DNA of 64,000 bases from Escherichia coli (GTDB lineage: Bacteria; Pseudomonadota; Gammaproteobacteria; Enterobacterales; Enterobacteriaceae), in assembly GCF_001677475.2 (NCBI RefSeq), contig NZ_CP015229.1; one strand, given 5' to 3'. The notes under the pieces were generated by a model, which saw only the letters and a list, made by a program, of their open reading frames with translations, ran no database searches and was not told the origin of the DNA. The position numbers and the translations under genes are program-made. Below, in pieces: positions 33,532 through 37,136 of the stretch (its first letter is position 1; each line of letters begins with the position of its first letter).

Positions 33532-33627
33532 AAGGCATATATTTCGTGAAAATCTGATATTTTGCCGATTTTGTACGCGATGGCAAAGTAAGCAAAAAAA
33601 ACCTGTCGCCTGGCAGGTTTTTTTATG
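33532..33627 (+). promoter_or_regulatory. Putative late promoter pR'/qut region with tR'-like terminator (hairpin at ~33598-33627)
   Basis: Seen in sequence: AACCTGTCGCCTGGCAGGTTTTTTTAT hairpin+T-run ~70 bp downstream of Q stop, as for lambda pR'-tR'. Confidence 0.45.
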
Positions 33628-33748
33628 CCAGAAAAACGGTACAGAACATTAAACGCGCTGGTGGTTGCGAATACCGGTCTTTCAGCTTGCTGGCTTTTTC
33701 GACAAGAGGTATTGGTGTGTCACGTTAACCAGAAAAGGGAAAAAGACA

Positions 33749-33945
33749 TGCTAAAACAGCAGGATATGACCGAAACCGCCAGAGTGGTATTTAATGAATT
33801 AAGCGTCACCGAACCGGCGACAGTCGGGGAGATTGCTCAGAATACTTACCTTTCACGCGAACGCTGTCAGTTAATACTGACCCAGCTTGTTATGGCGGGT
33901 CTGGCAGATTATCAGTTCGGTTGTTACAGACGCCTTCCGCAGTGA
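33749..33945 (+). CDS. Hypothetical small protein (65 aa) downstream of tR'
   Basis: Internal start of ORF 33625..33945; followed by hairpin GCCTTC...GAAGGC + T-run (~33932-33957). Confidence 0.3.
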
Positions 33946-34081
33946 AGGCTTTTTTATTTGTGGTAATGGGCGGCTGGTGGGTGTTAGCGGCACCTGTCAG
34001 TCATGCTCTTATGTGTTGATGAGAATTTACCTTTTGGGGCTATAATTGAGCCAACCAATTGCTAATTAAAGTAAAATTATA

Positions 34082-34795
34082 ATGGCTGTTGTCTGTTCAG
34101 TTATCATGGTTTGCTCCCCAATTAATATTTTTCTTGAAAAGGATAAGTTGTCACTTAAGCCCGGCTCAGTCGTTCTGGCCACCAAATGCATCAGGGAGCT
34201 GTTCCTTATGCATTATGGCAAAGTTAAAATTGTCGATATAAACCATTCCATAGTAAGTCAATATCTGGAAAGTCAGCATAAGCTGACGAGGACTCGTCTG
34301 ACTGACATTCCGCTTTACCTGTTCCTGGAACCCAACAATCCTGCGTTGGCTGCGGCTTTAATTACCAGCCAGAGATTTTCCGGAGATACCACGGATATGT
34401 TTCTTATGATGGCCTGCCTGTCGCTGTTTGAATCAGATGAACGGATGTCATTATTTTTAAGTGGATGTTTATCCAGTATAAGTGCCAAAGTCAGAGCGAT
34501 AATTCAAACAGATATATCTGCAAACTGGATGCTCGGTGCGATTGCGTTACGCCTGCATATGAGTGAGAGTTTGTTAAAGATAAAACTGAAAAATGAAGGG
34601 CATATGTTCAGTCGCTTGTTGCTGGAAGAGCGGATGCGGGTTGCTGTAAATATGTTATGTTCCCGGGATGGGTATGGACAGACAGTGGCAGAAAAATGCG
34701 GTTATTCAAGTAGGTCCTATTTTATCTCTGTATTTCACCGCTATTATGGCTTCCCGCCAGACAGATATGTATCTATGCAAGGGCTTGATTTTTGA
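34082..34795 (+). CDS. AraC-family transcriptional regulator (prophage cargo)
   Basis: 237-aa ORF with C-terminal AraC-type HTH (SRSYFISVFHRYYGFPPDRY). Start may lie upstream. Confidence 0.7.
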   Translation: MAVVCSVIMVCSPINIFLEKDKLSLKPGSVVLATKCIRELFLMHYGKVKIVDINHSIVSQYLESQHKLTRTRLTDIPLYLFLEPNNPALAAALITSQRFSGDTTDMFLMMACLSLFESDERMSLFLSGCLSSISAKVRAIIQTDISANWMLGAIALRLHMSESLLKIKLKNEGHMFSRLLLEERMRVAVNMLCSRDGYGQTVAEKCGYSSRSYFISVFHRYYGFPPDRYVSMQGLDF

Positions 34796-34821
34796 TTTCA
34801 TCTGATTATTATTTTCGGCCC

Positions 34822-34897
34822 GGCCCTTTAGCTCAGTGGTGAGAGCGAGCGGCTCATAACCGCCAGGTCGCTGGTTCAAATCCAGCATGGGCCACCA
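34822..34897 (+). tRNA. tRNA with CAU anticodon (Ile2/Met-type; ileZ-like)
   Basis: Hand-folded cloverleaf: D-arm TAGCTCAGTGGTGAGAGC, anticodon loop CTCATAA, T-arm GGTTCAAATCC, 3' ACCA. Confidence 0.7.
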
Positions 34898-34904
34898 TAA
34901 CATA

Positions 34905-34985
34905 CCGCCATTAGCTCATCAGGAAGAGCAGACGACACGATAACAGGGTTGTTGGTGCGGGGTTCGAGTCCTCGATGGCGGTCCA
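34905..34985 (+). tRNA. tRNA-like sequence with atypical anticodon/variable region (possibly degenerate)
   Basis: Perfect 7-bp acceptor stem (CCGCCAT/ATGGCGG), D-arm TAGCTCATCAGG, T-arm GGTTCGAGTCC and CCA, but the anticodon arm does not fold canonically by eye. Confidence 0.4.
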
Positions 34986-34998
34986 TTATCTGCATCAT

Positions 34999-35075
34999 GC
35001 GTTGTTAGCTCAGTCGGACAGAGCAATTGCCTTCTAAGCAATCGGTCACTGGTTCGAATCCAGTACAACGCGCCA
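34999..35075 (+). tRNA. tRNA-Arg (anticodon UCU; argO-like)
   Basis: Acceptor GCGTTGT/ACAACGC, D-arm TAGCTCAGTCGG, anticodon stem-loop ATTGC-CTTCTAA-GCAAT, T-arm GGTTCGAATCC, 3' CCA. Confidence 0.8.
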
Positions 35076-35248
35076 TACTTATTTTCCTGGCTCGCTTTTG
35101 CGGGCCTTTTTTGTATCCGCGCCACGCCCGGCGCATATCAAAAACCACAGAGCCTTTCAGGGGTGAGCTTACGGGATGGTCAGTGTGACTTTCTCTGTGG
35201 GCTGGTCACCCCCGGGCGCAGGCTCACCCACTAAAAGGAAAAGTCACG

Positions 35249-35674
35249 ATGTTTGGTATTTTCAAAAAGAAAACACGCAAGGCCATTACCGAAGTGAAGA
35301 AGATGGAGAACCGCGACGCAGTGGAGGCGACCGTCTGGGGCGCGTATTCCATTGCATTTGCCGACGGCACCTGTGACGCGAAAGAAATCGCGGTACTGGA
35401 GAAAACCATTGCAGCACTTCCTGCCTTTGCTCCGTTCTCGGGTGAGATTGCACAAATGAGTGCAAATATCCGCGCCCGTTATGAAGCATCGCCGCGTTCT
35501 GCCAATGCCGAAGCCCTCCGCCAGCTGGCTGATATTGCAGGTACTGATGACGCAGTTAATGTGCTGTGCCTGTGTCTGGATATCGCTGACCAGGACGGCA
35601 TTGGCCCGGATGAAGAAGCGCAACTGAAGAAAATTGCTCAGGCGCTGCAGCTACCACTGGAGCAGTACCTGTGA
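35249..35674 (+). CDS. TerB-like (tellurite-resistance TerB domain) protein
   Basis: 141-aa ORF; two segments resemble recalled E. coli TerB (WGAYSIAFADGTCDAKEIAVLEK; CLCLDIADQDGIGPDEEAQLKKIAQAL). Confidence 0.55.
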   Translation: MFGIFKKKTRKAITEVKKMENRDAVEATVWGAYSIAFADGTCDAKEIAVLEKTIAALPAFAPFSGEIAQMSANIRARYEASPRSANAEALRQLADIAGTDDAVNVLCLCLDIADQDGIGPDEEAQLKKIAQALQLPLEQYL

Positions 35675-35835
35675 AAAGTGCGCGCCTTGTGCTGGCTGCC
35701 ATCCTGCTGTTTCTGGTAGTGGCAGTGGATTTCACCGGACGGCTGATGTCGGTACTGGCAGATGGTGTGCTGGTGGCGGGGATGGTGATAATGGTGTTGC
35801 CTTTGCTGAAGAGTGTAAAAAATACACAGACGTGA
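35671..35835 (+). CDS. Putative small membrane protein (54 aa, GTG start)
   Basis: Hand translation VKSARLVLAAILLFLVVAVDFTGRLMSVLADGVLVAGMVIMVLPLLKSVKNTQT; start overlaps TerB-like stop. Confidence 0.3.
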   Translation: MKSARLVLAAILLFLVVAVDFTGRLMSVLADGVLVAGMVIMVLPLLKSVKNTQT

Positions 35836-36029
35836 AATGTTAAATCCATCACAATTAAGTTGATTGGGTATTGCTGGTTGACGGAGCTTTTGTTAGAAAA
35901 AATTTGCATGGTGGATCCCCCCGGGTGGTGGGCATATGAGTGATGTATGTTTCTGTTCTGCTCCTTTATTATGCTGATTCGGGTACTGATACTGAATTCA
36001 TCGGGAGGCACCCGGCACCATGCAAGCAT

Positions 36030-36054
36030 GCCCCTCTCCTGAGGGGCTTTTTAT
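36030..36054 (+). terminator. Rho-independent terminator
   Basis: Seen in sequence: GCCCCTCTCCTGAGGGGC followed by TTTTTAT. Confidence 0.5.
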
Positions 36055-36096
36055 ATAAACAGGTTCTACAGATTCTATCAGACATGCGTAAACTTA

Positions 36097-36432
36097 TTAT
36101 GGCCTGTGTCGTTTTAGCCCGTAGGGGCATATTTGCAGAATGCAACGGTTATTAAAGCATTCATTAAATACGTTATCTGAATTTGCAGGGCATTCTTGGC
36201 TGTTTTTGATTAAATCCCAGAATCTTTTATTGAATGGTACAACGTTGTAAATGGTTACAGGTAGCACTTTGTTATTGAGTACGATACCTGTGTGAGTCAG
36301 CGTAAATATACTTTCAGGAGGTAAGAAAACATCCGATTGATACCAGATTATTAATTTTATTTTACTCCATATGGCTGAAAAAGATATTCCACATGATGGC
36401 TGGATAACTGTATCAATCACAATCCACTTCAT
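36097..36432 (-). CDS. Hypothetical protein (111 aa) in AT-rich island, opposite to late transcription
   Basis: ORF only; local AT-richness and reverse orientation suggest a moron; possible degraded gene. Confidence 0.35.
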
Positions 36433-36693
36433 TTAGTTTCCTTATTTATGCCTTGCTGGTGATGTTCTGAAAAGTATAAATGATAATTTTGAATGTAAAC
36501 CATAGAGCAGAACTGTTTTTCTGATTTTGTTTATTGTTTATTTAAAATGCAGGGTGGTTTATATCTCGTCTTGTAGTTTATCCATGCATATCTGCTTTAT
36601 GATGAGGTTTTATTTAAAGTATGGTTTTGTGTTTTTTTCTGTATTGCATGTCAGGTATTTTAAAGAATTATTTTTTAGATGGTGGAAAGAACC

Positions 36694-37029
36694 ATGGCAT
36701 TTAAACACTATGATGTTGTCAGGGCGGCGTCGCCGTCAGATCTTGCGGAAAAGCTGACACACAAACTGAAAGAGGGCTGGCAGCCATACGGCGGACCGGT
36801 TGCCATTACGCCGTACACACTGATGCGGGCGGTGGCTATTGAAGGAGAGCCACAGGTCGGCCCTTCATCTGAGCCGGACTGGTTCTACGTGGTTGTGCTT
36901 ACCGGACAGTCCAACAGCATGGCCTACGGTGAAGGGCTTCCGTTACCGGATTCTTACGATGCTCCGGATCCGCGCATTAAACAGCTGGCGCGCCGCAGCA
37001 CGGTAACTGGCATTTTTAGCAGAGCCTGA
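36694..37029 (+). pseudogene. 5' fragment of nanS-like sialate O-acetylesterase gene (DUF1737 + start of SGNH/DUF303 domain)
   Basis: ORF 36679..37029; MAFKHYDVVRAASPSDL... then VVVLTGQSNSMAYGEG (GQSN esterase motif) ending after ~110 aa; full-length phage NanS-p is several-fold longer. Confidence 0.5.
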
Positions 37030-37136
37030 ATGCCATAATCACGGCTCCCGGAGTTGGCCGTCAGTGGGTGACACGGGCGGCTTTTTGTTTTTCTTTACTT
37101 TCATTTTCTGTCGGCGGGGACGGAGACATACATCAT

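Follow-up and report, generated by a model that had tools for sequence, protein, structure and literature searches.

Phages of Escherichia coli that carry Shiga toxin (Stx) genes place them between the antiterminator gene Q and the lysis genes S and R, in a backbone that runs Q, tR', a regulator or methylase gene, ileZ-argN-argO, a slot, STnc100, nanS-p and S-R. STnc100 is a small RNA (sRNA) gene located 75 nt downstream of stx2 in Stx2 phages (PMC12370729), and falls within a prophage sRNA family related to PasD (bioRxiv 10.64898/2026.05.13.724894). IraL, encoded on the potB island of strain CFT073, is an anti-adaptor that binds RssB and stabilizes RpoS (PMC4045071). The prophage-encoded AraC regulators PsrA, PsrB, and PatE control gadE/hdeA and have an indirect effect on type III secretion; PsrB is located in OI-57 (PMC10877973). 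This study concerns an interval of a prophage in E. coli contig NZ_CP015229.1, at positions 33532-37136 of the 64,000-nucleotide stretch that was analyzed (the window), which has a Q antiterminator gene on its left and a class II holin gene on its right.

Representatives of this layout are found both with and without toxin genes. Phage phiSTEC1575-Stx2k (OQ243220, 16.3-20.1 kb) shares with the interval the order TrmB-like, AraC-type, ileZ, argN, argO, slot, STnc100, reverse-strand iraM-like gene, and class II holin. The prophage in the OI-57 region of EDL933 (NZ_CP008957, 1,905,274-1,909,851) shares TrmB-like, AraC, tRNA-Ile, tRNA-Arg, TerB, DUF3927, STnc100, nanS-p, and class II holin genes, with no stx in the stretch examined and an unannotated gap at the argN position. 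Compared with these and further relatives, the interval is likely to be a late-operon leader filled with a row of self-contained cargo modules (morons), in a non-Stx prophage that is lambda-like, long-tailed, and integrated at potC.

Results

Organization of the interval

From Q to the holin, the features are in the following order (coordinates are those of the window; ORF, open reading frame).

32842-33531, forward: Q antiterminator (late-gene activator), 229 aa (PF06323 E=1e-87, residues 6-220; phrog_304 E=7e-103)
33515-33543, forward: candidate sigma-70 promoter resembling PR', TTGCAA-17-TATATT, across the end of Q (consensus scan only)
33595-33627, both directions: two-way intrinsic terminator resembling tR', where the cargo backbone begins on the left (terminator scan)
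33748-33945, forward: TrmB-like winged-helix ORF, 65 aa (phrog_331 E=1e-37), its end overlapped by a terminator at 33932-33949
34082-34795, forward: AraC/XylS-family regulator of YdeO/GadX type (HTH_18 E=9e-10; HTH_AraC E=1e-5)
34822-34897, forward: tRNA with anticodon CAU, ileZ type, reading AUA (ARAGORN; Rfam 68.1 bits; relatives annotated tRNA-Ile/ileZ)
34905-34985, forward: degenerate argN, a pseudo-tRNA (alignment to Stx phages)
34999-35075, forward: tRNA-Arg(UCU), argO type (ARAGORN; Rfam 71.7 bits), followed by a terminator at 35089-35106
35249-35674, forward: TerB-family protein, 141 aa (phrog_632 E=2e-64)
35671-35835, forward: DUF3927/TciB-like small membrane protein, 54 aa (phrog_1470 E=4e-22; PF13064 on the identical product)
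35877-36052, forward: STnc100-family sRNA gene (Rfam RF02076, 93.7 bits against a gathering score of 47, model positions 1-206), ending in an intrinsic terminator at 36030-36047
36097-36432, reverse: IraL/IraM-family RssB anti-adaptor, 111 aa (NF007393 163.9 bits, cut-off 121)
36694-37029, forward: nanS-p (SASA) esterase remnant, comprising DUF1737 and the start of the esterase part, then six foreign codons up to the stop
37057-37092, forward: hairpin and T-run just before the holin (folding z=-1.4, not significant)
37137-37343, forward: class II holin, 68 aa, right border (phrog_9876, phrog_20; PF04971 on the identical product)

A preliminary description of this DNA, made from the sequence alone, had listed Q, an AraC regulator, a TerB-like gene, a membrane ORF, an AT-rich reverse-strand ORF (the anti-adaptor gene), a piece of nanS, and the holin, and profile searches recovered all of these where it had placed them. 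It did not list the TrmB-like ORF, and missed STnc100 while noting its terminator. The hairpins it had reported near 33600, 33940, and 36040 are present, with further terminator-like hairpins at 35089-35106 and ~37057-37081. Its three tRNA-like genes resolve into two intact tRNAs and a pseudo-tRNA, and its nanS-like gene of only the first ~110 codons corresponds to 105 codons that align to full-length genes, followed by six unrelated ones.

Borders of the toxin-equivalent slot

The Stx2k phage OQ243220 aligns to window positions 33616-35123 at 91% DNA identity, and the alignment ends 43 nt before stx2A. Homology resumes at 36030, in the STnc100 terminator, and continues through the iraM-like region (75%) and the holin (93%), with stx2AB in between. 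With the Stx2a phage AP012536, the alignment covers 34806-35123 and picks up again at that phage's own STnc100. Rfam places STnc100 right after stx2B in both phages and right after DUF3927 in non-Stx prophages; in nine related loci it directly follows one or other of these genes. The alignment borders and the STnc100 positions thus confine the toxin-equivalent slot to 35124-35876, filled here by TerB and DUF3927. Two points of exchange emerge from these comparisons. Slot A, from the argO terminator to STnc100, holds TerB and DUF3927 in the window, stx2AB in Stx2 phages, and only DUF3927 in CFT073, and is empty in Sakai Sp9. Slot B, from STnc100 to nanS, is occupied by an iraL/iraM-like gene in the window, CFT073, and Stx2 phages, and by AgvB in Sakai Sp9.

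The Q-tRNA-cargo-nanS-S-R arrangement had been recognized beforehand as that of Stx phages, and synteny with OQ243220 and AP012536 bears this out: the full backbone layout is present, with flanks 87-91% identical in DNA. The reported absence of stxA and stxB also stands, the best match in tblastn searches with Stx2a and Stx2k A and B subunits over the 64 kb having E=0.28. The further claim that the locus carries a different gene set holds for slot A, where TerB and DUF3927 replace stx2AB, but not for the rest, since the TrmB-like ORF, AraC gene, three tRNA positions, STnc100, iraL/iraM-like gene, and holin are all found in OQ243220.

Comparison with known phages and prophages

The AraC-type helix-turn-helix protein of OQ243220 is 90.7% identical to that of the window and its iraM-like protein 74.8% identical. 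This phage differs in having stx2A/stx2B in the slot, an intact argN, no nanS remnant, and another Q type and other virion genes. The EDL933 OI-57-region prophage differs in its TerB allele (42% identical), its lack of an iraL-like gene, its full-length nanS-p, and its site next to ydfJ. The potB-island prophage of CFT073 (NC_004431, from 1,328,014) shares the potC site and integrase type and has the order Q, ileZ-argN-argO, DUF3927, STnc100, reverse iraL, nanS cut to DUF1737, and holin, with 83.5% DNA identity over 35840-36913. It differs in having no AraC gene (an IS200 follows Q), no TerB, an intact argN, and a nanS truncated elsewhere.

In strain Sakai, prophage Sp6 (at potC) shares the integration site, a TerB-like remnant, nanS-p, and S, together with a small DUF3927-like ORF (60% over 30 residues), whereas its TerB gene is broken and it is without AraC gene or tRNA. 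Sp9 (at ompW) shares the TrmB-like ORF, ileZ, argO, STnc100, nanS-p, and S; there the AraC gene gives way to a DNA methylase gene, nothing fills slot A, with ~110 nt from argO to STnc100, and AgvB takes the iraL-like position. No Rfam match to the AsxR or AgvB sRNAs was found at E<=1 in 30000-40000 of the window.

Over 28342-38032, the window is colinear with the E. coli assembly GCA_036679865.1 (contig JAQJCX010000001.1), at 99.69% identity. That assembly has the same gene calls from hok through the holin and differs by 29 substitutions, one gap, and an intact 213-residue ORF after the holin. The right half of the locus (35089-38980) is 97-98% identical to strains 09-00049 and 08-00022, and 49 complete genomes have the argO-TerB junction. 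A single piece covering 80% of the interval is found in no complete RefSeq genome. All seven proteins that were looked up have exact matches in NCBI, several with accessions in the ANO88466-ANO88472 range. With the same layouts in the EDL933 OI-57 region and CFT073, and a public assembly 99.7% identical over 28342-38032, the locus is not unusual: it is a mosaic of known modules, sequenced several times already, that adds no new kind of system.

TerB and DUF3927 in slot A

As a single sequence the TerB-family protein matches Pfam weakly (E=0.004). A profile of 51 homologs matches the TerB structure of PDB entry 2JXU with E=4e-25 over positions 5-142, and 49 of the 51 match PF05099. The AlphaFold2 model is all-helical, with a pLDDT of 92. 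Family membership is taken here from the sequence-profile match to 2JXU, in place of a structure search. The DUF3927 ORF, whose product has an exact counterpart in NCBI, shares its first 4 nt with the end of the TerB gene. The TerB-family gene and the DUF3927 ORF stand by themselves, other genes of the terZABCDEF operon (terC, terD, terE, etc.) not being present in 35107-35876.

DNA homology with the EDL933 and O103:H2 prophages runs from the tRNAs to ~22 codons into TerB (35249-35316) and then breaks; the remainder of the protein is 42% identical to the EDL933/O103 alleles. A break after a shared 5' end points to a recombination breakpoint inside the TerB gene, with distinct alleles sharing one 5' end.

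Regulators

The TrmB-like protein has an exact NCBI counterpart named TrmB family regulator, and Stx2k phages, Stx2a phages, and Sakai Sp9 have versions of its ORF that are 97-100% identical. The AraC-family gene encodes a C-terminal AraC-type double helix-turn-helix and follows a promoter-like site at 34019-34046. Its best NCBIfam matches are YdeO (7e-30) and GadX (6e-24), both under the equivalog cut-offs, and it also matches phrog_1450. The protein is 92.4% identical to WP_000301797.1, the sole AraC-type gene product in the examined part of the EDL933 OI-57 region. The names under which such proteins appear in sequence records are generic. The window gene is probably a Psr-type prophage regulator.

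Reviews place PsrA (z1789) in OI-50. Within 1,620,000-1,684,000 of NZ_CP008957, the potC prophage of EDL933 lies directly upstream of the OI-51 integrase, yet it has no annotated AraC-type gene; either the published OI-50 assignment of PsrA or our mapping of OI-50 needs checking.

tRNA genes and codon use

The two intact tRNAs read exactly the codons in which the prophage is enriched, AUA and AGA/AGG, which are three- to six-fold more frequent than in the flanking host genes. Of every 1000 codons, ATA makes up 10.4 in the prophage and 3.3 in the host flank; the corresponding values for AGA+AGG are 14.6 and 2.6. The AraC and iraL-like genes are richest in ATA/AGA/AGG, and the TerB gene has none.

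Compared with the ileZ copies of Stx phages, the ileZ-type tRNA has one base pair of the anticodon stem changed from A-T to G-C, so that pairing is kept, and a T:T mismatch at the sixth acceptor-stem pair; it still scores 68 bits. The middle tRNA was rejected as a functional gene: ARAGORN makes no call, Rfam none at E<=10, and the anticodon arm is replaced. It retains the acceptor and T arms of Stx-phage argN around a replaced D/anticodon region, and two other non-Stx prophages have an argN that is degenerate in the same way.

Anti-adaptor gene and nanS-p remnant

The reverse-strand ORF of slot B matches IraM (PDB entry 8TWD) with E=6e-33, and PF11183 matches the identical product. The protein is 89.2% identical to CFT073 IraL and 66.7% identical to K-12 IraM over 78 residues. 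In the Stx2a phage AP012536, an intact-looking, unannotated iraM/iraL-like ORF (9456-9776, reverse; 74% identical) lies between stx2B/STnc100 and nanS-p.

The iraM gene of K-12 is PhoP-regulated. A PhoP-box-like direct repeat, TGTTTA TTGTT TATTTA, is located at 36528-36544 (forward), ~100 nt upstream of the iraL-like start codon. It is the only one-mismatch PhoP-box match in the window and lies in a region of 31-34% GC; PhoP-box-like matches overall number 19 against 13.2 expected (standard deviation 4.0), not above chance. The repeat may be a chance match and is given as a lead only.

In the nanS-p remnant, residues 1-105 align to full-length SASA esterases. A segment of 1.7-1.85 kb is deleted, with the junction at 37004-37007, and this junction is 100% identical in six of 5426 complete genomes. 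A search of the remnant detected DUF1737 and no SASA catalytic domain; it is inactive as an esterase. The 133 nt from the junction to the holin (37004-37136) are 92-93% identical to their counterpart in prophages with full-length nanS. The place just upstream of the holin is where PasA/PasC-type sRNAs have been described in relatives (bioRxiv 10.64898/2026.05.13.724894).

Promoters, terminators, and the left edge of the cargo

Q matches PF06323 over its full length, and its exact sequence is found in NCBI under the names antiterminator and bacteriophage antitermination protein Q. A promoter-like site and a strong terminator follow within 100 nt downstream, and the position of the PR'-like candidate fits a late promoter with a leader of ~80 nt. 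The leader at 33550-33632 folds more stably than its shuffles (z=-4.8). Homology to other prophages and to Stx phages, including those with other Q types, begins at 33599-33616, at the tR'-like terminator. Since this start is the same despite other Q types, the cargo backbone is exchanged independently of Q.

For a row of morons, each module would be expected to have its own promoter and terminator. Terminator-like hairpins lie at four module borders, and promoter-like sites precede the AraC gene and the tRNAs at a frequency no higher than that of shuffled sequence.

Prophage context

Chromosomal E. coli DNA, with lolCDE, nagK, cobB, potD, and potC, takes up the left 17.8 kb of the window and is followed by one further feature of the element:

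17920-19038: phage integrase, adjoining potC

Lambda-like head and long-tail genes continue to the end of the window, which falls within the prophage; the effector cargo of related prophages sits past the tail-fiber genes, which leaves the earlier designation of the interval as the main cargo slot of the phage a possibility only. The potC/potB attachment site is common to Sakai Sp6, the EDL933 potC prophage, the CFT073 potB-island prophage, and the window prophage. These four elements have one integrase type and differ in the cargo that separates Q from S.

The early/nin region of the prophage has a type I toxin-antitoxin locus of hok/sok type (sok RNA at 30652-30826, ORF at 30764-30976); sok scores 110.6 bits in Rfam against 59, and an identical ORF in another assembly matches PF01848 HOK_GEF. 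On the lysis side, two genes lie between the holin gene (S) and the endolysin gene (R, 38442-38975): a frameshifted forward gene (37347-37989) and a reverse ORF (37999-38367, phrog_1853). Relative to intact 213-codon homologs in strains 08-00022 and 09-00049, the forward gene has an additional G (+1) at 37645, which splits it into overlapping ORFs at 37347-37685 and 37441-37989; it is either a pseudogene or the product of a sequencing error in the G-run. The additional genes between S and R (37347-38367) are also found in both strains, and the region looks like a second small cargo site within the lysis cassette.

Discussion

We take the gene identities, hairpin positions, slot borders, and codon bias from the DNA itself, and the transcription logic and physiological roles from characterized orthologs. 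In a lysogen, transcription of each module would start at a promoter of its own and end at its own terminator. Upon induction, Q-modified RNA polymerase starting at PR' would pass all the terminators into S and R and boost the whole row, as is known for stx. The AraC regulator may control the GAD acid-resistance regulon, the ileZ- and argO-type tRNAs would decode AUA and AGA/AGG to a possible benefit of the host, and the IraL-type protein would bind RssB and so stabilize RpoS. STnc100 would act in post-transcriptional regulation, and TerB with its small membrane partner in an undefined envelope or ion-stress function.

Several observations weigh against parts of this model. The terminator count of the interval (7, against 4.4 in shuffles, standard deviation 2.4) and the number of consensus promoter matches (6 against 6.9) are not enriched; the informative aspect of the terminators is their location at gene borders, not their number. 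The OI-57-region homolog in EDL933 is probably PsrB, as judged from its position in OI-57. In the potC prophage of EDL933 no AraC-type gene is annotated and tblastn of its first 40 kb finds none, nor is there one in the potC prophage of Sakai. A Foldseek search of the TerB model against PDB is weak, giving 2H5N alone with E=0.04. At least 95% identity is the criterion by which an iraL or iraM type is assigned (PMC4045071); the anti-adaptor falls below this for iraL, and though closest to IraL counts as a separate allele. Finally, the degenerate argN, truncated nanS, and +1 G frameshift at 37645 are signs of decay, so this may be a defective prophage, and read-through driven by Q may have been lost.

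These same signs, together with the ileZ-type acceptor-stem mismatch and the shortening of nanS to 105 codons, would also suit a decaying remnant within a defective prophage, its ORFs hitch-hiking without current function. We hold this to be quite unlikely, since the AraC, TerB, DUF3927, and IraL-type ORFs are intact, their exact proteins occurring on 6, 9, 797, and 724 contigs, respectively, and GCA_036679865.1 keeps them all despite its 29 substitutions and one gap in 9.7 kb. Orthologs such as IraL are active (PMC4045071), and even the truncated nanS junction is fully conserved in six genomes. That the element is a former Stx phage, whose stx genes were recently lost or replaced in this lineage leaving the Stx backbone behind, is very improbable. 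In its favor, both sides of slot A have homology to Stx2k and Stx2a phages, the slot begins and ends where the stx2AB block does, and the Pas sRNA preprint argues for repeated stx loss or rearrangement from chromosomal prophages (bioRxiv 10.64898/2026.05.13.724894). Yet flank identity to Stx phages reaches only 87-91%, whereas the closest relatives of each half are non-Stx prophages with 97-99.7% identity. There is no stx remnant in the window by tblastn, the layout with TerB in the slot is widespread, as the 49 genomes with its argO junction attest, and the virion genes are lambda-like with a long tail, in an element integrated at potC as is Sp6.

The role of slot A itself is open to a further interpretation, in which TerB and DUF3927 form a phage-exclusion, colicin-resistance, or tellurite-resistance module and the slot serves lysogen defense rather than general stress physiology. 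The PHROG labels for the pair ('tellurite resistance' and 'TciB-like inhibition of cell division or resistance to colicin') and the naming of close relatives as 'tellurite/colicin resistance protein' agree with it, and the 4-nt gene overlap suggests a coupled pair. These names, however, stem from large plasmid ter operons, of which only the TerB-like part is found here, and TerB alleles in the slot that are only 42% identical make no single conserved target evident. PADLOC defense models match neither protein, nor any other cargo protein, apart from a chance-level hit to the TrmB-like ORF (E=0.0035). We regard the defense interpretation as unlikely, and an envelope or ion-stress function is weakly favored over it because no defense model matches.

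If the interval is, as seems likely to us, a late-operon leader filled with morons, it is interesting to speculate whether TerB and DUF3927 are a functional counterpart of the toxin, made mainly by Q-dependent late transcription in the inducing minority of cells. This is decidedly improbable; if true, the pair would affect sibling lysogens or the dying cell's own envelope, for example in lysis timing, phage exclusion, or protection from colicin or ion stress. With the Psr-type regulator and the IraL-type anti-adaptor, it would then make up a coordinated stress-hardening cassette.

The locus provides a clean teaching example: it shows, at base-pair resolution, that the place of the stx genes is a single small slot, open to exchange and bounded by the argO terminator and STnc100. 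The backbone around slot A is common to harmless prophages, and other cargo, such as TerB and DUF3927, or nothing at all can fill it. The presence of an IraL-type RpoS stabilizer and a Psr-type acid-resistance regulator on one prophage could matter for the stress tolerance of the host.

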